Shown here: piece after piece, positions 4,112 to 48,499 of the stretch | How positions within the stretch are numbered: position 1 is the first letter of the stretch | How the letters are laid out: each line of letters starts with the position of its first letter | Assembly (NCBI GenBank): GCA_043228905.1 | Contig: JBHGNT010000016.1 | Coordinates: 11,718,001 to 11,782,000 of the forward strand | Reading direction: 5' to 3' | DNA length: 64,000 nt | Source: Azolla caroliniana | Taxonomy: Eukaryota; Plantae; Polypodiophyta | Made by a program: the position numbers and the translations under genes | The notes under the pieces: generated by a model | Told to the model about the DNA's origin: nothing | The model's input: the letters and a program-made list of their open reading frames with translations, nothing else | The model's database searches: none

Positions 4112-4558
4112 TGTCATGATATGGCAAGACTCGAACCCATGACCTTATGGTATATGGGTCGAGCTCTTAACCATCACACCATCTATTGTAATTTGTAGAA
4201 TATTATTTTCATTTATGCTTTATTATAAGAAATTAATGTATATTCCAGATTTCTCTGGAACATTCTAGAAGCTTTAGGACTACTCCTGAGAGCACTATAA
4301 AAGGAGGCACAAGGCATTGTTTTGAACCAAATTGGTTCAACGCCAATCTTAAGCCTCTTAGCCACTTTGTACTTATCCTTCACATAATATATTAGCTGTT
4401 ATCATTATCTCTCTCTCTCTCTCATCCTCGTTATCTCTCTCTCCTCTTCTCTCTCTCTCTCTCTCTCGGGAATCTTACGCAGTCCCGTCCTCTTAGTACT
4501 AATAGTACTTCTCTTCTTTAGTACTAATTCTCTCTCTGCTTTAATACTATTCCTGATA
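4112..4558 (+). repeat. 5' LTR of element B
   Basis: TGTCATGA...TCCTGATA; TATAAAA 4296-4302; matches 14454-14749 and 35484-35928. Confidence 0.92.
4123..4183 (-). promoter_or_regulatory. tRNA-like Pol III internal promoter (A box + B box) inside the LTR
   Basis: Minus strand TGGTGTGATGG (4181-4171), a 33-nt spacer, then GGTTCGAGTC (4137-4128). Confidence 0.6.
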
Positions 4559-4560
4559 GT

Positions 4561-4574
4561 TTGAACCAATTTGG
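4561..4574 (+). promoter_or_regulatory. Self-priming primer binding site of B
   Basis: ttgaaccaatttgg is the exact reverse complement of LTR 4327-4340 (ccaaattggttcaa); there is no TGG-starting tRNA PBS. Confidence 0.75.
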
Positions 4575-5740
4575 GTCCTCAAGTCTACTTATCGTTCTCC
4601 CTCATCCTCCTACCCTTTTCCCTATACTATGGCTACTGTTAGCGCCCAAGAATATCAATCCGTTTTCTTCGAGCTATAATGCCTAAAAGAAAAATTTGTT
4701 GCCTTGGAACAAGAAAACCAACGGCTGATAGGGGATCTGCAACAAATCGCTCTAGAAAAACAACAAACGTAGCAACAACATGGGGAGTTAGCGTTACGGG
4801 TACAACAACTCGAAGCAGAGCATTGCAACAACAAGGATCAAGTCCCCAAGGATTTCATAAAGAGCCGAAGATTAGACTTCCTATGAAATTTAATGGAACA
4901 CGATCGCAATTAAGGGGATTCCTTAATCAGGTACGATTAGTCATCCAAATGCATCCTTCCCGATACCCCACTGATGCATCCCGAGTCGGCCTAATAGGCA
5001 CGTTGCTTAGTGGCTCAACCTTAGCATGGTTTGCTCCGCTTCTAGAAAAACAATCGCCCTTGCTTAATAACTTTGAAGATTTTATTAGTGAGTTTAAAGC
5101 CTGCTTTGGAGACACCGACAACATCAGGACGACAATCAACAAGATCCGACGATTGCGTCAAGGCGATCGTCCAACCTCTGCCTACACGACGGATTTCCGT
5201 CTACTCGCCTCAGATATACCCTGGGATGATTAGGCACTAATGGAGCAGTTTTGCTACGGCTTGCGATGTAAAAGATTTACTTTTAACCTTCCTCGAAGAA
5301 CCAAAATCTCTTACAGAGGCAATTAGTCGAGCGGTTCGATATGACAACCGCCTTTTCGAACGGCGTTCCGAACGTCAATTACAAATACCACGCTCTAGGC
5401 CGGAGCCCACATACGCCTCAGTCGCGGCTAAAGCGTTCGCACGCGACGTACCTCAAGCAAATACTCCGACACCGATGGAGATTGACACCATGTGTCGAGG
5501 TGGCCCGTTATCGGAAGAAGAAAAGCAACGACGCCGTGTGAATCGATTATGTCTTTATTGCGGTGGACCAGGGCATATCGCAATCAATTGTCCCCATAGG
5601 CCAAGAAGACAGGTAAATCAAATTGTAGCATGTACTAAACCCGAGTCAATTCTTCCCTTAGGAGTGTCTGATAGTATTAATAGTACTAATAGCCCAAGTA
5701 TCTCAAACAAATTTGAAATCCTTAGTCAATTAGATGAAGA

Positions 5741-5785
5741 GTTAAACGATTGAGTCCAGCCAAAATACGAGCCGTTTAGTTGGAC
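5741..5785 (+). promoter_or_regulatory. Putative -1 ribosomal frameshift signal (gag-pol) of B
   Basis: G TTA AAC just before the gag stop, followed by a stem gtccagcca (5754-5762) / tagttggac (5777-5785). The protease ORF is in the -1 frame. Confidence 0.6.
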
Positions 5786-6847
5786 AACCCTAGATCTGTA
5801 CAACCCATTAGTGGTTCCATTCCCTCCAAGCAAGTTAGCAATGTGTTCCTAACCCAAGTCATGGTTAGTACTAAAAGTACTCCCCTAGTACAAGTCCTAA
5901 CACTTTTAGATTCCGGAGCCAATTCCTGTTTCATGGATCGAAATTTTCCCCAAGCTTCTCAGATATCCTTAAGAAACTTCCTTGCCTTGCATCTGTAGTA
6001 GTCATTGATGGTCGTCCCATTGCTTCCGGGAATATTGTAGAAGAGTCAGAACCCATTCAGGTTGTCCTAGGTAGTTTTGTGTGTGTAGTATCATTTAATA
6101 TAATTAGTAGTCCAGAGCATCCCATTGTCTTGGGATTACTTTGGTTTGAACTACATAATCCAGACATACATTGGAGAACAAGAGAAGTCCGATATCGACA
6201 ACCCCAAGGATCTACTCATCGAGTTTCGACCATTTCACTACGTGAACTATGCGAAGAAGGACACAAGGAGGCAATGTTCCTATTCGCCATATCAGTACAT
6301 CCTTCCAGCAATATTAAGGAGGAATCCTTAGTGCAACTTCTGGCGAAATATCATCCTTATGCCGACGTATTTGACAAGGTAAAAGCTGGTACTCTTCCTC
6401 ATCATCGTCCCTACGAATCCCTATGATTTACAACCAGGAGTAGAGCCACCATGGGGACCAATCTACAACTTGTAACCCACCGAGTTAGAAGTCCTTCGAG
6501 CCTACATAGAGGAGAACTTGGCAAGCAGGTTTATTCGTCATTCGAAATCTCCGGCCGGAGCACCCATCTTCTTTGTCAAGAAGAAAGATGGCTCACTTCG
6601 TCTGTTCGTTGATTACCGTGGCTTAAATAAAGTCACCATCCGGAATAGGTATGCACTTCCTCTTATATCAAGTCTTTTAGAGCAAGTTAATGGTGCCAAG
6701 TTTTTTACAAAAATCGATCTACGAGGAGCGTATAACCTCGTGCGGATCCGACCGGGAGATGAATGGAAGACCACCTTTCGCAAGCGGTATGGGCATTTCG
6801 AATATACTGTTATGCTGTTCGGTCGAACCAATGCACCCGTAGTCTTC

Positions 6848-6887
6848 TGTAAACGTAAGTGTTTGCAGAAGCGTAAAATAGAGAACA

Positions 6888-6954
<67 letters not shown>

Positions 6955-9900
6955 AGAACACAATTTCAAAATTATATCAAGCCTCCTTAACAACACACTG
7001 TGCTAAGTAGCACTATTTATACAAGTCCTCTTGGGACTGACAGAAGTACCATGTACTTCAATGCTCACACGAGCATCTGACACTTACTACGAGACTATAG
7101 CTACCTAGTGGTCTATCCTATACTAGGCTTCCGATTGGACTGCCGGTTACGGATTGCACCCGGCCTCCACTGCTTGCCGGTTCGGTTGCTCACCGTCATA
7201 CCGATCCGTTTCGCCCGATCCGTCTCGCTTACCGGCTCCGGCTTATTCAGCCGATCCGGCTCCGGTTGAGCTTGCCGCTCAACACTCCCCCTCAAGCTCA
7301 ACCTGAGGTGGGGTCGTAGTGTCGACCTTTGTGGCAGTCGGTTCTTCCAACCGACTTCTCCTGGCGACACTCCGCCTTGCTCGCGCTCCTCGTCCGGTTC
7401 GGTCCCGTTTGCCGCGACCCCTTTGGTTCTGCGTGCCTCGACCCTCTCGGTCAGTATGTCTGCTCAATCGGCCCATCTCAGCAGTCACGTTGCTGTGACT
7501 CCGGCGCTTGCCGATCCGTCGGTTCTCCCACGATGGCATCGACTTCCGCTGTGTCCGTGTCCCCTTGGCCTTCAGTCGATCCGTCTCATCCAGATCCACC
7601 TGTTGATTCGAGTCAGATGTCTCCGACTCGTTTCGGCTCTTGTCAGAATCGGTACACTCCGATTCGACTTCCGGCGTCAGGCCTCTCACCACATTGGACC
7701 ACTTCCGAGTCCTGGCCTTCTCCATGCTTCCCTCGGCTTCTTCAGCCGGTGAACCGAAATCGAATTCTTCATTCGACTCTGTATCATGGTCAGTACCGTC
7801 GTGATGACCTCCGCACAACATGCGCTTCTCTTCCTGAGTGCACAACTCTTCTTCACAGCCGCTTGCTCCGACCTGTTCGGATGTGTCGACTTCCTTCGTC
7901 GACTCAGCTTCCTTCAGCTTCTTGTCTCCTCTTCTTCCGGCTCTCCTCTTACTGACGGGTTCAACAGGTTTTTGGCCTTTGCCCGTTTCGGTAGAGACTT
8001 TGCCCTTGCTTCTCCCCCTCAAGTGCGACACGTCGAGATGCTGAATACCAAGCATGTCGGTAAAGTGCTGCAACTTGTCCCATCCGAGCGGCTTGGTGAA
8101 GATGTTGGCAACTTGCCGATCCGTATGAACATACCGTAGGTCAACTTCACCGTTCAGGACCCGCTCACGCACGAAGTGGTAGTGCACCTTGATGTGCTTT
8201 GTGCGTGCATGGAACATAGGGTTCCTGGCGAGCTGCAGGCTGCTCATGTTATCGCAGTAAATTGGGATCGGGGTCGGTACCTCGATCCATATGTCTCGCA
8301 ACAGTTGCCGAAGCCAGATGGCTTCATAGGTGGCAACGGTAGCGGCCCGGTACTTAACCTCAGTGCTTGACAAAGCCACTGTGGGCTGCTTCTTGCTGCT
8401 CCACACAACGGCCGCGCTACCTATGGAGAACATGTATCCGGAAGTGGAGCGGCGATCAGACGCATCGCCGGCCCATTCAGCATCTGTGTAACGGACAAGC
8501 TCTTCGGGTATACCTCGCCGGTATAGCAGTCCCCGGTCCTTAGTGCCGCTGACATACCGTAATATTCGTTGCGCGCACTGAAGGTGCTCCATGGTCGGCT
8601 TCTGCATGAACTGGCTTACCATGCCGACCGGATAGCTGATGTCGGGTCAGGTGATGGTTAAGTAGATCAGGCTTCCGACAACCTGTCGGAACCGTTTCTC
8701 ATTGCAGGCCGGTCCGGAGTTGGGACGGAGCTTCTGGTTCCGGTCCAGGGGTGTGGAGACAGGTCGGCAATCCGTCATGCTGAACTTATACAACATATTC
8801 AACACGTAATGTCGTTGTGAGAGCAATATGCCGTCAGGGGTCCGGATCACTTCGATCCCAAGAAAATAATGAAGGTCCCCCAGGTCCTTCATTTCGAATG
8901 CTTCCGACAACTGGGACTTGACGCGGTTGATTTCGGGAAGACCCGGTCTGGTGATGACTAAATCATCCACATACAAGAGTATACATACCGGACCGTTAGA
9001 GCCTTGTCGGATGAACAACGAAGAGTCCGACTTAGAGACAACAAACCCCAGCTTACGCAACCGGTGCGTGATCTTCGTGTTCCAAGCTCGGGGGGCTTGC
9101 TTCAAGCCGTAAAGCGACTTCTTCAGTCGGCATACCGCCGACTTGTTCATCTCCGAGTGAAATCTGGGGGGTTGAGTCATAAAGACTTCTTCTTCAAGCT
9201 CACCTTGAAGGAAGGCGTTCTTCACATCCATCTGGTGAAGATGCCACCCCCTTGCCGCAGCAACCGCCAGTACCACACGAACCGTCGTCATCTTCGCCAC
9301 AGGAGCGAAGGTCTCGTCGTAGTCGATTCCGTGGGTCTGCGCGTATCCCTTCGCCACTAACCGGGCTTTGTACCGGTTAACAGAACCATCGGCGTTGTAC
9401 TTGACCTTGTACACCCACTTGCATCCGATCGGTTTACAGTGACGGGGAGGATCAACTAGGTCCCAAGTTTCGTTGGCATCGAGCGCCCGCATTTCTTCAT
9501 CCATAGCGGCATGCCAATTTGCGTCCTTTGCCGCTTCTGCGTAGCTCTCTGGCTCATGCACTTCTGTCACCTTAGTCATGTATGCATAATGATGCACCAT
9601 GTATTCATTGTACCCGTACCGTATGACGGGATCCTTCTGGTGGGTTGATCGGCGCAACGCACCATCACCTGATTTGAGGCCTTTCTTGGCCAATTCGGTA
9701 TTCGTTACTGAAGATCTGCCTTTCTCCTTTCCGGAGTCGGATACACACCGATCCGACTCATCGTTGCCGGTTTCGAATTCCGGCATCTTCCTCTTCCCCT
9801 TCTCTTTGCGCGTGAACCGTTTCCTCGGTTCCTTGCGTGGGGAGAGCACGGCAGAGTCTCCACCACTTGCCGTCTCTTCATCCAACTGGTCCAACCGACT

Positions 9901-12808
9901 CAGTCGCTCGTTCGGTCCACTCAACCGTAACGATTCCGGACTCTCATCTTGAGTCTCGGCTTTATCATCCTCTGCCAGGGCTGATTCAGGCTCATTGGCC
10001 TGATCTTCCGGCATTCGGTTGGGATCGGAAGTCGGAGTCGGTACGGAGTACCAGGATGCCGATTCATCAAACTCGACATCCCGGCTAATTCGGACTTCCT
10101 TCGTCCGGGGGTTATAGCACTTATACCCCTTTTGCTCTTGAGCATAGCCGACTAGGATGCATTTTTCCGATTTTGCATCCAGCTTTCTCCACTTCTGATC
10201 CGGCACATGCACATACGCTATGCTACCAAATATCCGAAGGTGTCTTAAGTTCGGCTTGCGCCCGAAATACAGCTCATGAGCTGACACCTTATCACCAATG
10301 CGGTTTTATATGTAGACGGCCGTCTGGACCGCCTCCGCCCAGTAGAACCGGGGCATGCTCTTCTCCTCCAGCATTGCCCTTGCCGCTTCGACGAGTGTCC
10401 GGTTCTTCCTTTCGGCCACACCGTTTTGCTCCGGTGTGTATCTGCAGCTGAACTCTCGCTGAATTCTCTTCTGCTGTAGATAACTAGTGAATTGGCCGGA
10501 AAAATATTCCTTTCCGCCATCCGACCGAAGGCATTTGATCTTCCTCTCCGATTCCCGTTCCACCATCTTCTGGAGGCTCCGGAAACAGTCGAAGACTTCG
10601 CTCTTCCGCTCAATGAGGTAGATCCAAGTATGTCGAGTAAAGTCATCGATGAAGGAGACGAAGTATCGGCTCCCGCCAAGGCTTACACTTTGTGCCGGTC
10701 CCCACACATCCGAATGGATGAGATCGAGCTTGTTACGGCTTCGGTTCCGTTCGGTGGGGAATGGAAGCCGGTGTTGCTTCCCAAGTTGGCAAGCTTCACA
10801 AATTTCGGCTCTCCGGCCGCTGAACTTCGGCAAACCGAAAACGACTTGTTTCGTTTGCAAGTCTTGAAGCCTCTGGTAGTTGACGTGGCCTATCCGCTTA
10901 TGCCACAGGTCGATGTCCGACTCGACCTTCTGTCGTTCCGCGAACAGAGCGGTGCCAAAGTCATTGGTGTTGAGGATAAACATCCTCCCGTCTCTGCGCC
11001 CTTGCGCAATGACTTCGCCCTCATCCTCAATGAAGCACCTGAGGTGCGTAACCCGCACCTGCATCCCCTGGTCGACAATCTGACCGACGGACATCGGGTT
11101 CTTCGTGATTGTCGGAACGTGTAATACGTTCATCAGCTTCCCTTTCTGTCCTACGTGGCTTAGAGGGACTTCTCCGACGTGCATGATTGGGTGAGGAGTG
11201 TCGTCTCCGGTTTCGACTACTCCTGGTTGATCCGGTTTCTCCAGAAAGGAGAACCACTCTTTGTGGCTTGTCATGTGGTTCGACGCGCCGGAATCAACAT
11301 ACCACACTTCCTCCGTTTTGGAAGTGGTCTTCTTCATTGAGTTTGCCTTGTGATTCATCACCAAGGCTGGCCCCTTACCGGCATTTCCGGTTCCGGATTC
11401 TCCTGATCCGTTTGCGTAGTGCGAGTTTTGCCGGCCATCCTTATTGGTCTTGTCGGATCCGGATTTGTCCGAATGGGCACGCTTTCTCCAGCAGTCACTT
11501 TCCTTGTGGCCTTTTTTGTCACAGTACCAGCATTCCGTAGCGGATTTGTCTTGCCGGCCTCCGGCACCGCCTTGACTCCCCCTGCTTGTGGAAGTCCCGG
11601 AACTGCTGTCGGCACGCTCATAGTGCCTCCGTTCCTGCTCTTGCCGGCCGCCTCCATCGCGTGCCGACCCACCTCTTCCACCACGCCCACGGAGCCGATC
11701 CGTTCCCGTGTACAGCATTTGGCTGTCCGGGGATGCACTGGTAGATGCACCGGCGTGGTTCTCCTCTACAAGGAGCATCGATTGTAAGTCGAAGAATGAG
11801 GGGGTATTCTCCCTTGTACACACCGCAATCTGGAACGCTCCGAACTTGGATGCCAGGCCTCCGAGACATACCTGCACCATCTCGTCTTCTTCTACGGTAA
11901 CATTGATAGAGGCGAGCGAGTCGCAGATCTCCTTTATCCGGCCCGTGTAGTCTGCCACGAACATGTTCTTCTGTCGAACATTGCTCAACTCCTGTCTGAG
12001 TTGCAGCTTCCGGGCAGTGGTGCTTGCGGCGAAAACCTTTTTCAGGTTCCCCCAAGCATCCTTCGGTGTCTTGGCGTCACGGATGTGGCTGAGCAACTGA
12101 TCGCCGACACTGGACGCGAAGCAGTACATCACCTTGCTTGCCGCCTGTTCCCATACCGGGAAGTCCTTGTGTGCCGTGTCTGGCGCCGCATCATTCGCTC
12201 CTTCGACATAACTCCAGTACCCGTGTCCAAGCAGGTACTGGTGCATCTGGTAAGACCAGGATGCGTAGTTGCTCCTCTCGAGCTTCTCCACCGGGAGCGA
12301 CGTAGCCATGCCTCTATCCATGTCTTCTACTGTGTCTGTTTTTGACCTGTTAGGGTTTTCCTCTCAAGAGTAAATGTCTGCAGCAGAGGTTCTCAACCCT
12401 CGTGCTCTGATACCATGTAAACGTAAGTGTTTGCGGAAGCATAAAACAGAGAACAACACAGAGAGAGAGAGAGAGAGCAGAACACAATTTCAAAATTATA
12501 TCAAGACTCCTTAACAACACACTGTGCTAAGTAGCACTATTTATACAAGTCCTCTTGGGACTGACAGAAGTACCATGTACTTCAATGCTCACACGAGCAT
12601 CTGACACTTACTACGAGACTATAGCTACCTAGTGGTCTATCCTATACTAGGCTTCCGATTGGACTGCCGGTTACGGATTGCACCCGGCCTCCACTGCTTG
12701 CCAGTTCGGTTGCTCACCGTCATACCGATCCATTTCGCCCGATCCGTCTCGCTTACCGGCTCCGGCTTATTCAGCCGATCCAGCTATGGTTGAGCTTGCC
12801 GCTCAACA
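6848..12808 (-). mobile_element. Ty1/copia element C, full length
   Basis: LTRs 6848-7284 and 12416-12808; TSD TCTTC; PBS-iMet 12404-12415; PPT 7285-7296. Confidence 0.96.
7279..12321 (-). pseudogene. Gag-pol polyprotein of C (one frame, two premature stops, C-terminal extension)
   Basis: ORFs 10306-12321, 8647-10287 and 7279-8622 are in the same frame. Gag CCHC, VDSGAS, integrase, RT YVDD and RNase H are present. Stops at 10306-10308 and 8647-8649 fit CAA>TAA and CGA>TGA. Confidence 0.92.
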
Positions 12809-14824
12809 TCTTCCAACACATGGCAAATGATATATTCAGAGACCTCTTGGATATTTGTTTGATCATCTATCTGGATGATCTAGTGATTTATTCGAAAACC
12901 CAGGAAGAGCACGATTCTCATGTACTATTAGTACTAAATCGACTCCGCAAGAATGGTCTTTATGACAAGCTAGAAAAATGTAGCTTTGACTGCAAACAAG
13001 TGGAATTTCTAGGCTACGTTATCTCCTCAAAGGGCATCTCCATGGATCTAGCTAAAGTCCAAACTATGCTAGAGTGGCAAATTCCACGGTCAGTACGAGA
13101 TGTACAATGTTTTCTAGGTTTTGCTAACTTCTACCGCAAGTTTATACAAGATTACTCGAAGATTATTTTACCTCTCACACAACTTACAAGGAAGGGACAA
13201 GCATTTCTTTGGTCCAATGAAGCGGACATGGCTTTTCGGCATCTTAAGAAAGCCTTTACATCATCACCTATTCTAGCTCATGTGGATACAAGCAAACCAT
13301 TCATCATGGAGGCCGACGCATTAGATTTCGCCCTCGTAGCATCCTTTCTCAACAACAAGATACAGACGAGTTACATCCTGTGGCTTTCCATTCGTGCAAA
13401 TTCGATGTTGCAGAAATCTACTACGAAATACATGACAAGGAGTTATTAGCCATCGTGGATTCATTTGTGCAATGGAGGCATTTTTTGGACGGCTCTCCAC
13501 ATCAAGTCATCGTCTTCAGTGATCACAAGAATCTTTCTTATTTCCAGAATGCTCGTGTGCTAAATCGACGGCAAGCTAGGTGGGTTCAATTCCTCACACG
13601 TTTTGATTTCAAAATCGCATATTGACCAGGGAAGCAGCAAGGAAAGGCAGATGCACTATCACAATGTTCATTTCTTGCACCTCGTCTTGGTGATCCAGCG
13701 TTCGATAATCAAAAGCAAGTAATCTTGGGACCAACACAATTGCACACAACGCGGATTTTTCACACCCCAATGGATTCCCAGATTATCGACACCATACGTG
13801 CGAACTTGAAGATGGGCAATTTTGCTCAAGACATTCTGGCGCACACTGATACCTCTCAGGCATCATGTACCTAAGGCGCACACTGATACCTCTTAACCAT
13901 CGTCGATCGATATACAAAGATGGCACATTTTGTGTCGTGTACTAAGGCCATCACTAGCGAGGAAACCGCCGCCCTTGTCATGCGTGAGGTATTTCGGCAT
14001 CATGGCCTCCCAGACAGTATCATTAGTGACCGAGGACCGCAATTTGTCTCCAAATTTTGGCAGCATCTCTTCAAGATGCTCAAGTTCTCTTGCAACCTCT
14101 CCTCTGGCTACCATCCTCAGACCGATGGGCAGGTGGAACGAACAAACCAAACGCTGGAGCAATACCTCTGGTGTCTCCTGAGTTATCAACAGGACGATTG
14201 GGCCAAGATTCTCCACTTTGCGGAGTTTGCGTATAAGAATATTGTTCACTCCTCGACTCGAGTCTCCCCATTCTACACTTATACTGGTTCTCATCCTCGT
14301 TGGTCGGTGATCGACACCCCAGAGCTACCTACCAATCCTCGTGCCGAGGATCATTTGGAGAGACTACGCAAGATCCAGATGGATCTCTCTACTCATCTTC
14401 GTCATGCTCAACAGACACAGAAGACTTATGCGGATCGTCATCGGCTTCCCTCCTGTATATTCCAGATTTCTCTAGAACATTCTAGAAGCTTTAGGACTAC
14501 TCCTGAGAGCACTATAAAAGGAGGCACAAGGCATTGTTTTGAACCAAATTGGTTCAACGCCAGTCTTAAGCCTCTTAGCCACTTTGTACTTACCCTTCAC
14601 ATAATATATTAGCTATTATCATCATCTCTCTCTCTGTCATCCTCGCAATCTCTCTCTCGGGAATCTTACACAGTCCCGTCCTCTTAGTACTAATAGTACT
14701 TCTCTTCTTTAGTACTAATTCTCTCTCTGCTTTAGTACTATTCCTGACAGCGAGAAGGATCAATTTCAACTCCTTGTTCGGTTATGAGATGTCCAAGATA
14801 AGTAATTGATACCTTGTTCGGTTT

Positions 14825-32825: not shown

Positions 32826-35058
32826 TGTCACGACCCAAGCTTCAAAGACGATGTTGATTTGGAAGAAAAGAATATAATAACAAAGAAGAAGACAATAATA
32901 GGACAAAAAGACAATAATTTCTATTACCGAAAACCAAGATTTCAAGGTTGCTGAAGACTGGTGTTAAACCGAAATGGTTCAATACTAAGAAGATCTTCGA
33001 CTAATATAGTGTACATCGGATTGCGCATGATCGCCATTTGGCATACATGTTATGTGCCACTTGGCATACACGCATGCATGCTATTTGGTGGTCACTTACT
33101 GTGTCTAGTGCCCCTAATTCTTGAATAATAATAATATGAAAATACATTTATTAAGATAAATATGTGTAATGGTTAGAGTGTAAGACCGTTGCCTAAAAGT
33201 ACAAGTTCGAATCTTGATATTGACATTTTGTGACATCATCCTCCTTTGGCGACGAGTTCCATGAGTGGCAATGCATGAACTAGGTTTTGGTTTATGGGGA
33301 TAACGAGGATGAAAATCTTGTATAAGTTTAGAGGCATTAATGATGTTCGTTGCAGGTTCCCATGTTCAATCCGCAGGCGTGTATCCAAGACAATCTAGAT
33401 AATATAGCTTATTGTGGATGATCTTGGAGTCCAAAATAGCTTCTACTTCATATTGGGGTCCTTCAGCAAACTGAACAGGAGGTAGTGGTGGAATAACCCG
33501 ATTTGGGATAGAACTTGATGTCCATGGTTCTAGCAATGAAACATGAAATACTGGATGAAGACGCATATGTGAAGGTAGGTCCAGATGAAATGCAACATCG
33601 TCCACGTGATGACAGATTACAAATGGACTTAGACGTTGGAAATCCAATTTGTTACATGGTCGAGTAGTTTTCACATTACGACGGAATAACCATACATAAT
33701 CACCAACTTTAAACTTAGGGTCCTCAAGTCTAGAATCTAAGTGATGTTTATCTGCCACCTTCTTGTACTTGGCTTGAGGATGAAGCAAATTATAGGAAAG
33801 GTTGGCTTGAATTTCTTTGAGTTGTTTTAGACAATCCTTGACCACGAGATTGTTTGGGACTTTTGGACATTCGAGCATCATCCATCGAGGATGATATCCA
33901 GTGTTTCCAAAGAATGGAGTGAATCCCGTAGAAGAATGGATTGAATTATTGTAAGCAAATTTTGCCATATATAAGAAATTCATCCCATCATCTTGTTGAT
34001 AGTTGATAAAGCAACAAAGATATTGTTCTAATGTTTGATTTGTGCGTTCTATTTGACCATCATTTTGAGGATGGTAGCTTGAAGATAGTTTACGAGAAAG
34101 TCGAAGGATCTCAAGTAAGTGTATCCAAAACTTTGCAATAAATTCTGGCCCACGATCACTAATGATTTCATCTGGAAGGCCATGGTGCTTGAAAACTTCT
34201 TGCATAACAAGACTTGTTATTTCCTGACTAGTAAAAGTCTTTCTACATGGAAGAAAATGTGTCACTTTCGTAAAGTGATCCACCATTGTAAGAATAGCAT
34301 CATAGCCTTCAGAAGATGGGAGATCTATGATGAAATCGATAGAAATGGATTTCCACAGACCATTTGGAATGGGCAATGGGTGCAACAAACCATATGGTCG
34401 ATGTCGAGGCATCTTTGATTGACAACATACATCACAAGTAGAAACATAGTCTATGACAAATTGACGAACCTGAGGCCACCAATAGTTTCGGGTTATTGGC
34501 TCTAATATTTTCAAAACTCCGAAATGTCCAGCTAATGGTGAATAATGGCAATGTTGCAAGACTTCAAGTCAAGAAGGTTCATCAGGAATATAAGTACGTT
34601 TGTTTCAAAAAAGCAACCCATCATGCCCATTGAAATTCCCATAATCCATGCGAGAAAACTTGGAGCGTGAACAAGAAGCATGATCTGGAACAATGTGGTC
34701 TAAAATATCTTGTGCAAAATCATCTGAACCAATGCTCGAGCAAATAGAATCAAGAAATTTTGAATCTAAATTTGTCTTAGAAACCAAGATTAAAACATTA
34801 TTGAAGACTGGTTCAACGCAAAATATCAATATCAAGATTCGAACTTGTGACCTTTAAACAATGCTAGTGTACATCCGATCGTGCATGATCACCATTTGGC
34901 ATACATGCTATGTGCCACTTGGCATACATGCACGCATGCCATTTGGCGGTCACTTACTGTATCTAGTGCCCCTAATTCTTGAATAATAATAATATGGAAA
35001 TATATTTGTTAATTAAGATAAATGGATGTAATGGTTAGAGTGTAAGATTATTGTGACA
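32826..35058 (-). mobile_element. Gypsy chromovirus G (B-related), internally deleted
   Basis: 3' LTR 32826-33235 (TGTCAC...GTGACA); PPT ~33236-33248; integrase + chromodomain ORF 33366-34559; rearranged 5' LTR ~34802-35058; TSD cttgt/cttgc. Confidence 0.88.
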
Positions 35059-35319
35059 CTTGCCTATTCACAAATGAACATAATTTCTTCTTCGCTCGTA
35101 GCGATGGCTGAAGTGCCCTTTTCATAAGAAATCTTCATGGGTTCAACATCATTGCAAACACCTTTGTCCTTCTTGAGTTGTCAGCAGTCCTTCTCCAAGT
35201 GTCCAAGTTTTCCACAATAGAAACATGTAAGCTTGCCTCTGAACTTGGATTTGGCATGGGATTCGTCCCTCCTTTGTGGACTTCTCGGTCTATTCGTTCC
35301 TCTACTGGAATGTGGAGTC

Positions 35320-38300
35320 AGGGTCCGACGATCAATATGTAACCCACATACAACAGGAGTATCAGGAAGTCTCCTCCGTTGAACTTCTTCACAAATACGC
35401 AGTGGTTGTCCTGTGTCTTGTGGTATCATTGGTTGGTCATGAAGGAGTCAAACTTCCGGTACCATTTCCAGGGAGCTTGTTGTAGTCATGATATGGCAAA
35501 ACTCGAACCCATGACCTTATGGTATATGGGTCGAGCTCTTAACCATCACACCATCTATTGTAATTTGTAGAATATTATTTTCATTTATGCTTTATTATAA
35601 GAAATGAATGTATATTCCAGATTTCTCTAGAACATTCTAGAAGCTTCAGGACTACTCTTGAGAGCACTATAAAAGGAGGCACAAGGCATTGTTTTGAACC
35701 AAATTGGTTCAACGCCAGTCTTAAGCCTCTTAGCCACTTTATACTTATCCTTCACATAATATATTAGTTGTTATCATCATCTCTCTCTCTCTCATCCTCA
35801 CTATCTCTCTCTCCTCTTCTCTCTCTCTCTCTCTCTCGGGAATCTTACACAGTCCCGTCCTCTTAGTACTAATAGTACTTGTCTTCTTTAGTACTAATTC
35901 TCTCTCTACTTTAGTACTATTCCTGATAGCTGTAGTCAATATAAGATCTTCTTCAACTAGCATACCAGGTGGTCCTTCCCTTTCTTGACAAATCCCTCCA
36001 GTTGTAGGAACGTCACCGTGTAGATCTCTTCTTTGATGTCACCGTGTAGGAACGTCGTCTTGATGTCTACTTTCTCTACCTCGAGGTCCATGCTCGCCCC
36101 TATGCTCAAAACAGTCCGGATGGATTTCATCTTGACTACCGGGGCAAAGATCTCGTCGAAATCCACTCCCTTATTCTGCTGGAAGCCCTTCACCACTATC
36201 CGAGCTTTGTATCTTGGTGGATTTCCAGCATCTCCTGGTTTTAGCTTGCACACCCACTTGTTCCGGAGCGCTCTCTTTCCTTTTGGCAGCTCCGTCATTT
36301 CATATTTGTGGTTCTCATGCAGGGAATCCATCTCAACCTGCATGGCACTTAACCACTTGCGGTTGAGGGTGTCTTTCTTTGCTTAGTCGAAGCTTTCCAG
36401 CTCCCCCTCGTCGGTTAGCAGCACATGCTCTACATCCAAAAATCTCTAGGGGGGCTCTTCTCTCCCTGAGAGGATATCTTCTTCTCCCTTAGTTCTCGAC
36501 CACCGGTTCCTCCATTTGTTCTTCATCCAAATCCGATTCGGGGTCTTGTCTGGTCCCGATGTCCGATTCTTCTTCTTCTTTGATCAGTTCGGTTTCTTTT
36601 CCGACTCTGACCGGTTCGTCAAGTGTCATTTGGCTTCCGGCCGGATGAGTCCTTGTATCTTCTAACCGATCTCTATCGATCGACCCGAAGTCCACTATCT
36701 TCTTCTCCAACTCCCAGTTGACAATGTTCTTGTCTTCCATGAAGACTATGTCTCAGCTCCGGAATACCTTCTTGTCGACCAAATCCCACACTCGATAGCC
36801 GAACTCATCATCACCATATCCAAGGAATATGCATGGTCGGGACTTCGGATCCAACTTTGCTCTCCTGTCCTTTGCTACATGCACATAGGCAAGACAACCG
36901 AACACATTCAGATGCTAGTAAGACACATCTTTACCGGTCCATACTCTTTGTGGTGTGTCTCCGTCCAGGGGTGCTGAAGGTGATCTGTTAATCACATAGT
37001 TTGCCATCGTCAACGCCTCAGCCACTTCTTAAACACCTTAGCATGTACAAGCATACTTCAGACTCTCTCCATTACGGACTGGTACATCCTTTCGGCCAGC
37101 CCGTTTAGTTCTGGCATCTTCGGCACGGTGAATTCGAGCTGGATTCCCTTCAACCGGAAATACTCCTCGAACTTCCCCCAGTATTCTCCTCCATTGTCCA
37201 CTCGAACCACCTTCAGCTTTCGGCCGATTTCCATTTCCACGCTCGCCTGGAATTCCTTAAAGACAGATAATACCTGGTCCTTCGTCTTCAGTGGTAATAC
37301 CCACAGCTTCCGGCTGTGGTCGTCTATGAATGTCACGAAGTACTGCGATCCGGCATATGACTTCGTGTCCACTTGGCATACATTGGTATGCACAAGTTTC
37401 AACGGTGGTCGGGTTCGGAAAGAGGTTTGGTTTTGTTTGCTGGCCAAAACATCGGTGCACTTCTCAAGCTACACGTCTTTCACCTCTATAATGAGGTTAA
37501 CTTCGGCAAGTCTCTGTGTTCCCTTCTGGCTCATGTGGCACAACCTCTTGTGCCACAGCTCACCGACAGTGTCGGATGCCACGTTCACTTCCTCCCAACA
37601 AATCCAGGCATGCATCAGGTACAAAGTTTTGATCTTTCGGGCTCGGGCCATGATCAGGCTTCCTTTGCTAAACTTCATGACTCCGTTCCGGATGCTACCC
37701 ATGTAACCTTCATCATCCAACTGATCGACTAATATCAGGTTCAACCGAACCTCCATAACATGTCAGACATCCTTCAGCAGCAACTTGCACCCGGTTGACG
37801 TTGACAGCAACACATCTCCTTATGCTGACAATTCGGCATGCACCTTCATTTCCCATCCGGACACAACCGTGATCTCCAGCTGTGTACGATGAGAAGCATT
37901 TCCAGTCGAGTGTCAAATGGAACGATGCTCCGGAGTCGTCTCATCACTGACAAGATGCAGCTCATTTTCCTCGGTGATGAGCAGCAGTTCTTCTTCACTT
38001 GTCGTGATTGATATCGTTACTTTCCGATCCAAACTCCTCCGGGCCAGACCCTTATTCGCGTCGGCATTGTCGGTTCCTTTCTCCTTCCAGAAGTGTCGGC
38101 AATTCTTTTGGAAGTCCTCTGGCTTCTCACGGTAGAAGCAAGTGGGCCTCCCCCTTGACTTCGACCTCATCCCTGATTTGTCCCAGTTCTGGGGACTCCG
38201 ATTCCGGCCTCTTCCCCAATTATGGTCGTCTTCCATAACTAAGGCCTTCGAATCGGTTCCAAACTCCTGGTCCTTCCTGCGAGCTTCTTTGTCTAGCAAA

Positions 38301-39456
38301 CTCGACTTCACTCTCGCTAGGGATGGGTGTTTCCCGTCCATCCCAGTGTTGCCCAAAGTGACAACCAAAATCTCCCAACTATCCAGGAGGGAACCGAGCA
38401 GCAGCAATGCGAGTATCTCGTCAGCTAGAGGTACTTCCTATGAGGTTGTTTGGTTTATCATCCCCTGGAATGTATTCATGTGCTCTACCATGTTGGATCC
38501 TTCTTGGTCTCGGAGTCTCACTAAGTTCCGGAATACCGAAACCCGTTTCACGACGTTCTTGCTCTCCAACATGGTGCTGATTTTCTCCTAGAGGACATGC
38601 ATTGGGCCTTACTTTCTTCGTTGAAGTTGTTGTATAGTCTCTTGTCGATGAAGCATTGAATGTATGTTGTCGTCTTCATGTGCATCATCTCCTAGTTTGC
38701 GGCATCAATTTTATCTAGTCTTTTGTCTCTGAACTATACCGGCAGCTAGAGATCTTTGACCACCAACGTGTCCCTCATCTTCGACTTCCACACTAGATAG
38801 TTGGAGCCGGTGAGCTTGAACATGCCACCGAATGGATCTTCCATGCTCTGATACCAGATTGTGCGGAATAGTGCTCGGCCACAACCGAGTCTCGAACTCA
38901 CAATGCAAGAAATAAACAGAAAATAGCAATGCACTTACACAGACAACAGAGACGACGCCAAATGTTTACGTGGAAAACCCTAATAGGGAAAAATCACGGG
39001 AACCCACAGACTCCAACTATCACTATGAGAGGAAGGATACAACGCGAGACTCAGAGGCAACGACCTCGAGCTCTATGTCTTCGCCAACTGACTGTTACAA
39101 CAAGAAATACTTTCTCTTTCTCTCTCACTCTCTCTCTCTCTCTGTCACTCTTTGTCTATACAATAATAACAATAATAATGTCATCATAAAACACTATTTT
39201 CCCTAGTTATATTTATACTCATATAACTTATGGGCTATTTACAAATATGACCTCAACGGTCACGTTTGAACATATTTACAAATATGTTCCTATTTGCTTG
39301 TTCATACCGGATCCGGCAGGACTCGTTCTGGATCCATCCGATCCGGTATCCGGATACCTTGCGGATCCATCCAGTTCAGTTCCTCCTTTCATCCCTTCTG
39401 ATCCGATTCGTCCGGTTCTCATCCAGATCCCATCCAGAGGGACTTGTTTCTCAACT
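35320..39456 (-). mobile_element. Degenerate copia I (D/F-related), 3'-truncated
   Basis: RT, INT, PR and gag fragments; PBS 38845-38856 with the ATG directly adjacent; 5' LTR ~38860-39456. Confidence 0.85.
35484..35928 (+). repeat. Solo LTR of family B inserted in the RT of element I
   Basis: Near-identical to 4112-4558; TSD gttgt/gctgt. Confidence 0.9.
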
Positions 39457-39663
39457 ATCTCTGTAATGTCTGCAAAAACGAGCATAATCACACTCACTAA
39501 GCAACAAAAATATTAGAAAATAACAATAGGACAAAACAACATTCCTTGACCAAAATAAACTATTTCTTGAATATTTCTAGACATAATCCATTACATGAGT
39601 ATTCTATGCAACGGAATGAAGATGTAAAGAATCAAGTGTATAATTCTATGCAACGGAATGAAG

Positions 39664-39664
<1 letters not shown>

Positions 39665-39727
<63 letters not shown>
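39665..39727. repeat. (GT)n-(GA)n compound microsatellite
   Basis: Read directly from the sequence. Confidence 0.95.
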
Positions 39728-39729
<2 letters not shown>

Positions 39730-40032
39730 ACACAATGTAGTTAGAAAACAAGAAGATCATATTATCAAGAAAAATAGCAACCAACAGTTACAAAGGAGAG
39801 GAGAAGGTGCTTATATGGTCACCTCCTCTCTACATTCTCTCACTAACTCTTGGGAAAGAGGTGGGGACTGAACTACCTACCTATCAACTATGTGTCATAG
39901 AAGTTATGATACAAAGTGGTGGAATGTTCACACACTTGGCTATTCCTATGGTGTGTTCCACACTAGGAATAAACCAATAAGGATTTTACTTGTACAAACA
40001 CATGTTACTTATATATTAATCTTCAAATGGAA

Positions 40033-40663
40033 AGTCAACTAAGCAAGTCCACTAAATTGTGATCTGGTAGGATTTCGGTCCCTCCGGATGGGATATGAGT
40101 ACCCGACAACAGAAGACCCAGTGAGAACCGGATGACGCAGGCCCGGTGAGAACCTCTTACCGGATTAAGGGACATATATGGAAATATGTTTCTGAGAGCC
40201 CATTGGGGCTATATCTATAAATAGTCCTAATGTCAGATTAGTATAAATATGACCTAGGGCAAACAATGTGTGTGTGTATCATTGTGTTGTCATTTTTCCT
40301 GTGATATAGAGTTATTTGGTGTAATTGCTATATAGAGTCCACTAAATTGTGATATAGAGTCAACTAAGCAAGTCCACTAAATTGTGATCTGGTAGGATTT
40401 CGGTCCCTCCGGATGGGATATGAGTACCCGACAACAGAAGACCCAGTGAGAACCGGATGACGCAGGCCCGATGAGAACCTCTTACCGGATTAAGGGACAT
40501 ATATGGAAATATGTTTCTGAGAGCCCATTGGGGCTATATCTATAAATAGTCCTAATGTCAGATTAGTATAAATATGACCTAGGGCAAACAATGTGTGTGT
40601 GTGTATCATTGTGTTGTCATTTTTCCTGTGATATAGAGTTATTTGGTGTAATTGCTATATAGA
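40033..40663. repeat. ~325-bp tandem duplication of the flank plus the first part of J's 5' LTR
   Basis: agtcaactaagcaagtccactaaattgtgatctggtagg... occurs at ~40033 and ~40358. Confidence 0.9.
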
Positions 40664-43600: not shown

Positions 43601-45512
43601 TCCCCCGGTAGTAAAGATGACTTTCATCTGGACAATGCCAAGCATAGCGGCGAGCATGGACCTTGAGGTAGAGCAATTAGACGTGAAGACAGCATTCCTC
43701 CACGGCGACCTCGAAGAGGAGATCTACATGCAATAACCGGAGGGATTTGTGAAGGAAGGGAAGGAGCACGTGGTTTGCCGGCTGAAGAAGAACCTCTACG
43801 GTTTGAAGCAGGCTCCCCGGCAATGGTACTGGAAGTTCGACTCCTTCATGAAGGATCATGGATACCACAAGACGCAGGCCGATCACTGCGTGTTCGTGAA
43901 GAAGTTTGAAGGTGGAGACTTCCTGATACTCCTCCTGTACGTGGATGACATGATGATCGTCGGACGAGACTAAGTCAAGATATGGACGTTGAACAAGGCT
44001 CTGAACCGGACCTTCTCAATGAAAGACTTAGGTCCGGCAAGATAGATATTGGGGATGCATATCATCCAGGACCGGTCAAAGAAGCAATTGTGGTTGTCAC
44101 AGGAGAAGTATGTGACAAAGGTACTTCAGCGGTTCAACATGTCAGATGCGAAACCGGTCGGATCAACACTCCCGGCAAACTACAAGTTATCCGGTAAGCA
44201 AAGCCCGAAGACGAAGGCAGAGAAGATGCATATGATGAAGATACCATATGCCTCTGCCGTCGGAAGCTTAATGTACGCAATGGTGTGTACCCGACCGGAT
44301 ATTGGATACGCAATCGGAGTGGTGAGCCGCTTTATGAGCAATCCCGGCGAGGAGCACTGGAATGCGGTAAAATGGATACTCCGGTACTTGAAAGGCACCT
44401 CAACTGTGTGTCTTCGATTCCGCTCCGGTAAACCCCAACTTGACGGTTTCACCGACTCGGATATGTCGGCTGATGCGGATACCAGCCGGTCAACATCGGG
44501 ATATGTTATGACATATGTAGGGGGAGGTGTTTCGTGGCAGTCGAGGCTACAGAAGACGGTTGCATTGTCAACCACGGAGGTGGAGTACATGGCGGTTATG
44601 GAAGCCGGCAAGGAAATACTATGGATGAAGGACTTCATCGAAGAGCTAGGGATCTGGCAAGAGGAATACCGGCTCCATTGCAACAGTGTCATCCACCTTG
44701 CGAAGAACGCAACGTATCATTCCAAGACGAAGCACATCCAGCAGAGGTACCACTGGATTCGGGAGCGAGTGGAAGATCAAGAGTTCGTGATGACGAAGAT
44801 CCACACTGAGGAGAATGGGTCGGATATGTTGATCAAGGTGTTGACACCCGACAAGTTGGGTGCATGCCGGAAACGGATCGGACTGACGAGGCATCCCATG
44901 CCGGAGTGAAGAGGGGGTTTGTTAGGATTTCGGTCCCTCCAGATGGGATGATGAGTACCCGGCAACAGAAGACCCGGTGAGAACCGGATGACGCAGGCCC
45001 GGTGAGAACCTCTCACCGGATGAAGGGACATATATGGAAATATGTTTTTGAGAGCCCAATGGAGCTATATTTGTAAATAGTCCTGATGTCATATTAGTAT
45101 AAATATGACCTAGGGTAAACAAAGTGTGTGTGTATCATTGTGTTGTCATTTTTCCTGTGATATAGAGTTATTTGGTGTAACTACTATATAGAGCGTAGCA
45201 GAGAGAGAGAGAGAGAGTTAGATATAGAGTGATTCTCTATTGTAACCGCCACGAGGCGAAGAGAGTGAGCACGAGGTCATTGCCTCTGTGCCCCCTGTTG
45301 TATTCTTTGACATAGTGATAGTTTGGAGTCTGTGGGCTCCCGTGGTTTTTTCCCATTTAGGGTTTTCCACGTTAACATACTGTGTACACTCTCTTTTAGT
45401 GTTTTGTGTATACGTTCATCTATCTCCACATTCCCATTGCTATGTTTGTAATTCACAACGAAGTGATTGAAGACTCGGTTGTGGCCGAGAATTATTCCGC
45501 ATATTCTCGTCA
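40390..45512 (+). mobile_element. Ty1/copia element J (D/F family), degenerate full length
   Basis: LTRs 40390-40902 and 44920-45512; TSD tgatc/taatc; PBS 40906-40917; PPT ~44907-44917. Confidence 0.93.
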
Positions 45513-46309
45513 TAATCCACTAAAGGAAAGTTCCACTAAAATGTAAATTTAGGGCCTTGACCAAGTAGCTAGTTCCTTCCTTGATGGAGCTCCCTTCTTC
45601 TGCAACTCCCTTCTTCTGCCTTTTTCATGACGACAATCCATTTTCCCTAGTCTCTTCACCTATTGCGCAAGTGTGTCCTTCGACAACATATGCACTACCT
45701 TCTCCTCCTCCAAAAGCTCACTAGCAACTTCCTTCATTAATGGTTCTACACAATAAGGTGTAGGGCTAGGTTGGGTCGTTACAAAGTTAGAGGACTCAAA
45801 GAATTGTTATATGAAGTGTTCAAAAACACAGTTATTTTGCATGCCTAAATCACGCACTTGGCCAACTAATTTGTTATTTTGGGTAACATTGCCTAGTTCA
45901 ATGCACTCTTCCACAAGCAAAGAATTAAGCTAATTTGAAGGAGATATCTAGGCAAGTGTTGTGACATGTGAGAAAGAGAGAGAGAGAGAAAGAGAGAGAA
46001 TAGAATAAGATGAAGATAGAAGGTAGAGAGAGAAAAAGAAGACTTGAAACGGAAAGGAGTTTATATTATAAGAGAACAAGGGTTACAAAGATTAGGCTAA
46101 GGGGCTGAACACTGGTGTTGAACTAAATGAGTTTTGATGAATGAGTAGACACCTATTTATATGTCCTTATGGAGTATTCTAGAATGTTCTAGAGTTTTTT
46201 AGATATTTATGATATTTAAGATAATCATAGAATATTCTAGAATGTTTTAGAATACTCTAAATATCTTATAATAACTAATAATATAATTCTTGTAAATTAT
46301 ATATTGTAT

Positions 46310-48318
46310 TGTGAAATGCTCTCAAGAATTGCCCCCTTTCATTATGTCTCAAGTTACATTTTATAGACTCTCTCTTAGCGTGGAGGGTGTTCTCCCGCTC
46401 CAATTAGCTCTACTAATTATGGGGCTTGGTGGGGGCCTAGTTTGGGTGTGGTGCATGAGGCTTGGTAGGGGCCTAATTTGGGTGTGGTCTATGTGTGGTG
46501 CATGGGGCTTGGTAGGGGCCTAATCTAGGTGTGGTCCATGTGACCACCACAATTCCCCCTTGTAAAAAAAAAGTTATTGTGCAGTCGAAGTGCGACGAGG
46601 CGTGGACGACGGTTCTAGACGGGGGGATGACACAGGCGTGGGCGTAGGCATGAGTGTGGGCGGGGGCGGTGGTAGTTGATGGAAGGGCTTCATGCGAGAC
46701 TGGTGAGCAAAGGTAGGACGGTTGTTGGAGGCGCGGCGGAGCAGGTATGTAGTGTCGTGTATCTGCTTTTGAACTTCGAAGGGACTGATCCATCGGTGCA
46801 TGAGCGATTCGTTGAGACCGCGACGACGGATGGGGAAGTAGACGAGGACTTTGTCACCGACGTGGTATTGATGGTCGACACGGCCTATATCGTGTTGTCG
46901 TTTTTGGCGTAGTTGTGCCTGGTGCAGGTTGCTCGTGATGGCTTTGCGGAGGAGGGGCTGGAGTTGTTGTAGGTGGGACCACCAAGACACTGCGTGAGCG
47001 TGGAGTTGTGTGGTTGGTTGCGGGACTGCCACTTCTGGGGGTAAGCGCGGGTCCCTTCCGTAAAGGGCCCGAAATGGGAGCTCAGAGAGGGAGGCAGCGT
47101 CAGCTAATTGGACGTTCTGCTTCTGTTGGTGATTCTGCCACTTTCGGTAGTGACGCCGAATGTGGCCATAGTTGTTGCAGTAGAAACATTTGGGGCGTCC
47201 CTGGCTGTCTCGTTCGGGCAATGCACGCTTGGCACGTAATTGCGCATTCTGGATGTCGATGTCCATGGGAGTGACGGCTGGTATAGTGTTTGTATGATCA
47301 TGACTGAGATTACCTGGTGTGTGCATGTCGTGCGCGTCTGCAGCTTCGATGCGTTGGGCAGTGAGGATGGCTTCGTGTAGTGTCGTCGGGCCTTGATCGT
47401 GTACACGGCGGCGGAGGTCATGTCGTATACACGGCCAGAAAAAAAACAACTTCATGTCCTCCGACATGTTGGCGTCAGCCCAGCGTAGGATCTGCACAAA
47501 ACGAACCGCGAACTGGGTGATGGGTTCGCGTGGTTGTTGGGTAATTGACTCAAGTTGTTGTAGGGCCGTTTGGCGGGAGTCTTGATGAGCAAAATTCCGA
47601 ATCATGGCTGCCCGTAACAGATCCCAGTCGTTGCGTGTCTCTTCGGGTTGTTGTACAAGCCATGTTGTCGCGATATTCTCGAGGAGTGTCTTCATCTCCA
47701 TTGCCTTCCGAGGGTGTGGCCACTGGTGGTAACTGGCCACCATTTCGAAATGATCCAGCCAAGAGAGGACGTCTTCCGATGGTAGGCCGGAGAACGGTTT
47801 TGGGCGAACTCGAGAGTCCGGGAGATTTTGTTGTGGCTCGGATCGTGCTGAAAGAAAGGACAACATGGCTTGGTTAGTATGGTTAACTTGTAAAATGATG
47901 TTGGACAGAGCTTGAACCAGTTGGTCGATTGGCGATGTGGGCTGGTGTCCTTGATTGTGTTGTAGGAATTCCGGATTCATCGAGTTTGCGTTGTCGTCGT
48001 TGTTGTCGTGTTGCATCGTGGCGGGCGTTGTTGGGGTCGTGAGTTGGGGTGGCTTTGCCCGTCTTCTCCACCAAGATGTGAAATGCTCTCAAGAATCGCC
48101 CCCTTTCATTATGTCTCAAGTTACATTTTATAGACTCTCTCTTAGCGTGGAGGGTGTTCTCCCGCTCCAATTAGCTCTACTAATTATGGGGCTTGGTGGG
48201 GGCCTAGTTTGGGTGTGGTGCATGAGGCTTGGTAGGGGCCTAATTTGGGTGTGGTCTATGTGTGGTGCATGGGGCTTGGTAGGGGCCTAATCTAGGTGTG
48301 GTCCATGTGACCACCACA
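46310..48318 (-). mobile_element. Short gypsy-type element K (2009 bp), no PR/RT/RH/integrase core
   Basis: 242-bp LTRs 46310-46551 and 48077-48318 (one difference seen); 4-bp TSD GTAT; PBS TGGTGGAGAAGACGGGC (48073-48057, tRNA-Ala-like); PPT 46552-46561. Confidence 0.94.
46574..48016 (-). CDS. Gag fused to the integrase C-terminal (GPY/F) domain, 480 aa
   Basis: PKPFSG...WLDHFE capsid-like region, CFYCNNYGH knuckle, then PFRALYGRDPRLP...RQKRQHD...VGDKVLV...WISPFEV. Confidence 0.82.
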   Translation of the reverse strand: MQHDNNDDNANSMNPEFLQHNQGHQPTSPIDQLVQALSNIILQVNHTNQAMLSFLSARSEPQQNLPDSRVRPKPFSGLPSEDVLSWLDHFEMVASYHQWPHPRKAMEMKTLLENIATTWLVQQPEETRNDWDLLRAAMIRNFAHQDSRQTALQQLESITQQPREPITQFAVRFVQILRWADANMSEDMKLFFFWPCIRHDLRRRVHDQGPTTLHEAILTAQRIEAADAHDMHTPGNLSHDHTNTIPAVTPMDIDIQNAQLRAKRALPERDSQGRPKCFYCNNYGHIRRHYRKWQNHQQKQNVQLADAASLSELPFRALYGRDPRLPPEVAVPQPTTQLHAHAVSWWSHLQQLQPLLRKAITSNLHQAQLRQKRQHDIGRVDHQYHVGDKVLVYFPIRRRGLNESLMHRWISPFEVQKQIHDTTYLLRRASNNRPTFAHQSRMKPFHQLPPPPPTLMPTPTPVSSPRLEPSSTPRRTSTAQ

Positions 48319-48499
48319 GTATATGTTACCATAATTGTTAAAGGTTTAACATGTATACCAAGATATTGTGGGTTCAAATCCTTGTAAGCCAAAATGTTTG
48401 TCATCATGACATTATTTCCCCTTTTCAACGACGAGTTCCTCGAGTCATAAAGAAGGACTTCGGACTTCGCTTATGTGGATATTTGTTGTGAATAGCAAT

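Follow-up and report, generated by a model that had tools for sequence, protein, structure and literature searches.

RNA polymerase III (Pol III) promoters placed within long terminal repeats (LTRs) have been described for Helenus, Ajax and Cassandra, all of them short non-autonomous elements (PMC10886601, 10.1101/2023.07.14.548913, PMC13570524). In Helenus, the part resembling transfer RNA (tRNA) is proposed to make the element's own RNA (PMC10886601). The same source reports that other LTRs in Repbase also resemble tRNA, and as only the miniature terminal-repeat retrotransposons (TRIMs) were pursued there, elements of the kind described below may be on file unpublished. Pol III promoters also act on chromatin: the tRNA-gene (tDNA) barriers of fission yeast are reported to need the A box, TATA and TFIIIC/Pol III, and to work independently of orientation (PMC2040200). 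Among chromoviruses, the class I chromodomain (CHD_I) of MAGGY is reported to bind methylated lysine 9 of histone H3 (H3K9me; PMC3350952), and how the chromoviruses that aim at heterochromatin remain active is an open question.

Here, we analysed a stretch of 64,000 nucleotides of the fern Azolla caroliniana (assembly GCA_043228905.1, contig JBHGNT010000016.1, positions 11,718,001 to 11,782,000, forward strand), called the window hereafter, which is a nest of plant LTR retrotransposons. Three Ty3/gypsy chromoviruses of the window, B, G and H, carry at the unique 3′ (U3) edge of their LTRs an antisense module made of an A box and a B box, as found in tRNA genes. This module bears on the question above and on that of tDNA barriers in plants.

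Results

An outward-facing A/B-box module in three LTR families

A sequence-only reading of the window had proposed that a chromovirus lineage retains an antisense, tRNA-derived A/B-box site at the 5′ end of its LTRs, and this core proposal is upheld. The 5′ LTR of element B (4112..4558, plus strand) presents on its minus strand TGGTGTGATGG (4181-4171), 33 nt and GGTTCGAGTC (4137-4128), i.e. an A box at 4171..4181 (tRNA positions 8-19) and a B box at 4128..4137 (tRNA positions 52-61). Between them, on the same strand, the AGGTC block at 4141..4145 (tRNA positions 44-48) is the best-conserved block across families, while an AT-rich stretch at 4189..4218, also on the minus strand, lies upstream of the module as a putative TFIIIB site. 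A solo B LTR inside a copia element (35484..35928, plus strand, target-site duplication (TSD) GTTGT/GCTGT) holds the module on the minus strand as well, at 35553-35500 (A box 35543-35553, B box 35500-35509), with a B box that ends in ...GAGTT, one change. The module of G (33162..33213, plus strand) consists of ATGTGTAATGG (33162-33172), 31 nt and AGTTCGAATC (33204-33213), and lies in a 3′ LTR of the minus strand (32826..33235) that is preceded by a polypurine tract (PPT) and the chromodomain end of pol. A third module, of TACCATAATTG (48327-48337), 33 nt and GGTTCAAATC (48371-48380) on the plus strand, is present as had been read; its owner, however, is LTR H and not the element N to which it had been assigned. 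All the modules stand 70-85 bp from an LTR start and face out of their element, in agreement with the sequence-only reading.

The strict motif, in which 25-45 nt separate the A box from the B box, occurs once in the window versus 0.02 expected from 100 local shuffles; the modules of the solo B LTR and of G, and the third one, all deviate from it by at least one base. The B box alone, or TGG with the B box, is weak evidence (3 seen versus 1.29 expected), and the TGG with B-box match at 54791-54838 was dismissed as chance, being within a LINE-like (long interspersed nuclear element) coding stretch.

The assignment of the third module follows from the nesting of N in H. LTR H, on the minus strand, spans from 48411 to about 45960 and is cut into a 5′ part (48323..48411) and a remainder beyond N (45960..46309). 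The LTR of locus L011 aligns to H in two pieces that meet at the site of N, and contigs from 4/4 runs join across the empty N site in H; therefore N is nested in H, and the third module belongs to the chromovirus LTR H. H is, like that of G, a 3′ LTR, preceded by a PPT and a C-terminal pol remnant at 48412-48480. N itself (46310..48318, minus strand) is a non-autonomous gypsy element with gag and an integrase C-terminal remnant but no module: its 242-bp LTRs (46310-46551 and 48077-48318) reach a module score of only 13 on the scale given below, and its primer-binding site (PBS) begins with TGGTGGAGA, of the tRNA type. Its 4-bp TSD, GTAT (46306-46309 and 48319-48322), falls at positions -1..+3 of the H module. 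The insertion point, a single event, is close to where Pol III would start on H.

All scorable members of one chromovirus clade carry the module

Relatives were fetched using an SH3-chromodomain alignment, and the best 80 of 604 confirmed stretches were used. In 65 of these 80 loci an LTR start was located that had 110 nt or more behind it, which made them scorable; the other 15 were unscorable. The score covers the A and B boxes (18 possible) at a spacing of 31-36, with a cut-off of 14 that was set after the scores had been seen. The antisense strand scored 14-17 in 15 of the 65 scorable loci and 13 or less in the remaining 50, the sense strand scored 14 in 2/65 loci, and shuffles reached 14 in 9/1000. 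The module is antisense in 15/15 module loci. All 15 are from one assembly accession series, so that they show family diversity rather than host range. Public DNA runs from several organisms, plus plant and leaf metagenomes, contain B. The viral contigs searched contained no relatives.

The integrase tree (83 rows) gathers the module into one clade with a support of 0.98, in which 16/16 scorable members carry it. This clade is made of 14 module loci and of B and G of the window, plus 3 cut contigs. A quick IQ-TREE tree of 36 rows gave the module clade a value of 98 in the Shimodaira-Hasegawa-like approximate likelihood ratio test. Outside the main clade, L030 presents (4496-4580) a good B box, from which an A-box-like site is separated by 37 or 44 nt; LTR recombination between co-resident families, or an older origin with losses, are both possible sources of its module. 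L030 also carries a tandem pair of B-box-like sites. Loci L011, L019, L025, L064 and L079 are low-coverage single copies and more decayed.

A search with a profile of the module recovered all known copies, followed by tRNA-like genes in viral loci and two sites like short interspersed nuclear elements (SINEs). The ranking is mostly circular, because the 12 viral loci had been chosen by their module-like pattern. The two SINE-like sites, with SINE-head-like A/B boxes or a B box, are distant from any LTR start and lie in L049 (13505-13559) and L008 (1009-1051).

The boxes are conserved and the sequence around them is not

Conservation was quantified as the mean pairwise identity of ten families, with one row each. 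It reaches 0.59 in the A box, 0.85 at positions 44-48 and 0.75 in the B box, compared to 0.37 for the anticodon arm, 0.32 for positions 66-76 and 0.36-0.42 upstream; composition would give 0.26-0.29 inside the module and 0.32-0.38 upstream. As the flank identities are ungapped they are understated, and the fair control is the anticodon arm, which sits inside an indel-poor segment. The boxes are more conserved than the sequence between and around them, a comparison that the sequence-only reading had called for on a genome-wide scale. The A-B spacing is 32-33 nt in 10/10 families, while the distance from the B box to the LTR edge varies from 16 to 49 nt, and that from the A box to the TATA box from 113 to 206 nt (in the 8 of 11 rows having a TATA box). 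Upstream, positions -30 to -1 are 86% AT across the ten families, with no conserved sequence.

Seven positions, T8, A44, G46, T47, G53, T54 and T55, are invariant in 10/10 families. Position 12 admits all four bases, position 59 three, and position 57 is a purine, a pattern of variable positions that matches those free in promoters. TFIIIC of yeast is reported to touch a base that lies upstream of the B box, and binding or transcription to be altered by changes at +44 to +47 (PMC11724288); the conserved 44-48 block, outside the textbook B box, matches this contact region. Within family B, among 40 of the 79 variant rows, A-box variants fall only at positions 12 and 14, the latter moving toward the consensus A, and B-family contigs on the B LTR show 0 variant rows in 4112-4149, so none in the B box. 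The integrases of the module families are 65-78% identical among high-coverage contigs, and 57-60% identical to that of L025. Taken as a comparison of aligned copies, this pattern indicates that the module is real, clade-wide and under selection.

The module is promoter-like and does not encode a tRNA

ARAGORN found 0 tRNA in the window and 0 in the loci scanned (39/39), and Rfam tRNA gave no match at E ≤ 10. Relaxed ARAGORN returns inconsistent isotypes and also flags AT-rich DNA; a tRNA gene was therefore rejected, and the tRNA-Gln-like identity that had been suggested for the module is unsupported by such mixed isotypes. Cloverleaf pairing is at shuffle level (60.9% versus 58.4% in shuffled sequences, 73/500 shuffles being as high), with an anticodon stem pairing of about 43%. 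No fold is shared across families on either strand. There is no conserved terminator: the first run of four T (T4) lies +1 to +531 past the B box, and none is found within 600 nt in 1/10. The acceptor stem, the cloverleaf and the terminator have been lost, and position, orientation, spacing and clade-wide retention have been kept.

The sequence-only reading would have abandoned the module for want of extra conservation in the boxes, or for want of both a covariance-model signal and Pol III/TFIIIC binding. No covariance-model or ARAGORN signal exists, whereas the boxes do exceed their neighbours in conservation; the missing signal speaks against an RNA that resembles tRNA and leaves the case for a DNA element untouched. 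The conservation reads as the footprint of a DNA element recognised by TFIIIC, not of a tRNA, and the module resembles a type-2 Pol III promoter, as predicted from its boxes, being neither a tRNA gene nor Helenus.

The module-bearing elements are self-priming, Tcn1-like chromoviruses

B, G and H are Tcn1-like: Ty3/gypsy elements that have a chromodomain and are self-priming. In their relatives, whole pol open reading frames (ORFs) of 1183-1282 amino acids are present in L001, L004, L005, L008, L010 and L030. Reverse transcriptase (RT), RNase H (RH), integrase and chromodomain were all found in the four loci scanned (L001, L008, L010 and L030); in these loci the chromodomain PF00385, at the integrase C-terminus, is above cut-off. 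Its aromatic residues were seen as Y..W..Y. Self-priming sites of 12 nt, complementary to the start of the element's own R (repeat) region, are present in L001, L004 and L008, whereas the corresponding rows for L009, L010, L031 and L044 were discarded, as they are not at an LTR end. Chromodomain and self-priming together fit the Tcn1 clade as described (PMC6317226). Of the relatives listed, at least 120, those with a name are for the most part elements of fungi, vertebrates and algae, at 41-65%; since no named Tcn1 reference was among the elements compared, the label is kept as Tcn1-like. By this coding content the module-bearing families are autonomous. For P0153, a near relative in pol (78% over RT-RH), the extra domains PF00692 and PF22769 are listed, which we take to be of the dUTPase family.

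Element B (4112-14750, plus strand) is flanked by the 5-bp TSD GCGAG and inserted into the pol of another gypsy element. Its U3 contains a TATA box at 4296..4302 (plus strand), presumably that of its own RNA polymerase II (Pol II) promoter. The self-primer sequence at the predicted R start (4327..4340, plus strand) is complementary over 14 nt to the self-priming PBS (4561..4574, plus strand), which has no tRNA-type TGG start. The 3′ LTR (14454..14750, plus strand) is truncated, its module being gone by a deletion back to LTR position ~126. A copia element (6848-12808) is nested in the RT of B; about 240 low-complexity charged residues follow the RNase H of its pol and reach the LTR.

Arrays of nGAAn type, which resemble heat-shock elements, were seen in the U3 of B (three units, 4258-4270, plus strand), of H (46170-46250), of L008 (4340-4430) and of L011. 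They are found only in the B, H and L008 families and are absent from G, L004, L005, L025 and L030, so that B, H and L008 form a candidate heat-responsive subgroup.

In element G, a coding remnant of integrase, SH3 and chromodomain (33236..34568, minus strand) continues into the PPT ahead of the 3′ LTR, and a second, rearranged LTR lies at 34769..35059 (minus strand). The start of this second LTR is without its B-box piece, which is found inverted at 34819-34865, about 190 bp further in.

Other features of the window

An intact copia element at 55790-60731, with 279-bp LTRs and a 1396-amino-acid ORF, is a very recent insertion, as its LTRs are 100% identical. At least six related copia copies, nested and in tandem, on both strands, occupy 16569-45506. 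A decayed stretch at 53700-55300 reads by eye like a LINE reverse transcriptase, with a partial duplicate at 52991-53218. Short-repeat arrays of AAACC type at 48500-48800 and 55570-55760 resemble the ends of non-autonomous DNA transposons.

Discussion

The conservation of the module points to selection on the DNA itself, and we consider it probable that what is selected is a TFIIIC site, behind which the AT-rich stretch likely serves for the assembly of TFIIIB and Pol III. The likely origin of the module is that an ancestral U3 captured, in a single event, a tRNA gene or the head of a SINE. Insertions are predicted to be directed by the class I chromodomain into H3K9-methylated chromatin, and insertions steered in this way would put the complex between flanking heterochromatin and the Pol II promoter of the LTR, 113-206 bp from the TATA box. 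The outward orientation would stop Pol III from running through that promoter. Granted a TFIIIC site, the chances are about even, by analogy with the yeast barriers, that such a complex slows the spread of silencing. Taken as a whole, our preferred but tentative interpretation is that this antisense promoter, derived from a tRNA gene and placed at the LTR edge, likely binds the host TFIIIC and would serve as a portable chromatin barrier. We suggest with somewhat more reserve that autonomous, heterochromatin-seeking retrotransposons may in this way carry their own tDNA-type barrier at each LTR edge and stay transcribable in silent chromatin.

Several observations weigh against this barrier. Conservation demonstrates selection, not which job is selected. 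At position 10 the A box has T in 5/10 families, unlike the consensus of tRNAs, and CAA at -10..-3 is found in 0/10 families; both the AT-rich upstream region and CAA are reported to be weaker outside flowering plants (PMC13578239). TFIIIC is reported to accept an A-B spacing of 30-67 bp (PMC11811891), so that binding by itself would not call for a spacing fixed at 32-33 nt. The variation in family B comes from 40 of 79 rows, and variants near contig ends are unlisted. Related Tcn1-like chromoviruses thrive without the module (50/65 loci), and since all 15 module loci belong to one accession series, the host range is unproven. Finally, tDNA-type barriers are undescribed in plants according to the text available from PMC13578239.

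The same promoter might be selected because it drives an outward, antisense transcript across the flank or across the PPT and chromodomain region, or because it opens a zone free of nucleosomes and rich in TBP, by which the divergent Pol II promoter is boosted. Both boxes have been retained along with the upstream stretch of 86% AT, all of which a full transcription complex requires, and the module stands head to head with the TATA box throughout; but the absence of a conserved terminator (T4 1 to 531 nt past the B box) and of a shared fold on either strand, together with a TATA distance that varies over 113-206 bp, make this use of the promoter, the main rival of the barrier, rather unlikely in our view. 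Docking is a further role conceivable for a TFIIIB-recruiting module, if integrases that seek Pol III inserted there and the family, or other elements, thus had a self-made safe target. The insertion of N at positions -1..+3 of the H module is what such docking predicts, but it is one event, which we estimate to occur by chance about 1 time in 20 (20-bp zone, 450-bp LTR), and both B copies with a TSD lie in coding DNA of other elements and not at a module. We regard docking as very improbable.

Other explanations place the selection on RNA or on the LTR end, or dispense with it. If the module on the genomic RNA annealed to a host tRNA at the D and T arms, and so helped strand transfer, dimerisation or packaging, its antisense orientation in U3 by the PPT, its conserved D- and T-arm stretches and its fixed spacing would be accounted for, and yeast Ty3 is reported to use the U3 part of its bipartite primer site so (PMC5371799). 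The elements are however self-priming, with a PBS of 14 nt in B and 12 nt in L001, L004 and L008, and therefore have no primer tRNA to bridge; moreover, the variation at positions 10, 12 and 59 could not be paired by one tRNA partner, even with G-U, which renders annealing improbable. Slightly less weight still falls on a hairpin in which the conserved block folds onto the LTR terminus (GTCATG with CATGAC), has a structural role in the priming of the plus strand, the processing of ends or integration, and owes its likeness to tRNA to ancestry. RNAalifold pairs columns 136-141 with 194-199 (LTR end, alignment A2), family G changes both sides, and the pairing appears in single-sequence folds of several families. 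This is nevertheless a single compensatory event between sides conserved for other reasons, with a consensus energy of only -1.59 kcal/mol, and it leaves the A box and the B box unexplained. If an old tRNA or SINE insertion had been copied with the LTR as a neutral relic, it would have neither fold nor terminator, and copies do lose the module (B 3′ LTR, second G LTR). Yet the boxes keep an identity of 0.59-0.85 versus 0.37 in the indel-free stretch between them, despite diverged integrases; this difference between box and spacer largely refutes neutrality, to which we give the least credence of all.

If the barrier proposed here is real, thousands of LTR copies would seed boundaries across the host genome, and the module would serve a transposon as a device against silencing in cis, besides being the first tDNA barrier in plants. 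The module would also imply many extra TFIIIC sites in these genomes.

Comparison with known systems

The elements share with the Tcn1 clade (Tf1/Sushi group; PMC6317226, PMC2864245) an aromatic chromodomain, no tRNA PBS, predicted self-priming and a 5-bp TSD, in addition to LTRs of ~415-465 bp and close fungal and vertebrate relatives. The text available from these two sources mentions no tRNA-like U3 module, and here only a subclade has it. With the bipartite PBS of Ty3 (PMC5371799) they have in common a stretch of U3 complementary to the D and T arms of tRNA; Ty3 is, however, tRNA-primed and pairs with one tRNA, whereas the present elements self-prime and vary at pairing-critical positions. 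The tDNA/B-box barriers of fission and budding yeast (PMC2040200) likewise combine A/B boxes with upstream AT/TATA at a putative boundary and are independent of orientation; those are fixed host loci, shown experimentally, while the module is a mobile non-coding relic known from sequence alone.

A full-text literature search, judged mostly from titles and abstract openings and covering papers outside subscription, found no description of an antisense module in autonomous chromoviruses. PMC3601003 does not mention B boxes or Pol III, and the available text of PMC12789967 does not speak of any tRNA-like stretch in the HIV-1 U3.

The closest systems are the TRIMs. Cassandra is also a plant LTR element that keeps an internal Pol III promoter under selection; in contrast to the module, its promoter is of the 5S type 1, and the element is non-autonomous and itself transcribed from that promoter (PMC10886601, 10.1101/2023.07.14.548913). 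Helenus (TRIMp3; Kojima 2024, PMC10886601) is nearer still: its tRNA-derived LTR sequence is reported to be conserved at boxes A and B and to be mostly unable to encode a working tRNA, and one family is from a plant (Selaginella). Helenus elements are, however, described as non-autonomous, less than ~1.3 kb long and tRNA-primed, whereas those described here are autonomous and self-priming, with a TATA-type promoter; the tRNA-like part is sense in three Helenus LTRs, including Helenus-1_SMo (PMC10886601), and antisense at the U3 edge here. LTR-borne Pol III promoters are thus already known in short non-autonomous elements, and it is the autonomous, antisense form that appears to be new. The capture of a Pol III promoter would then be known not from short parasitic TRIMs alone but also, in the opposite orientation, from autonomous elements.

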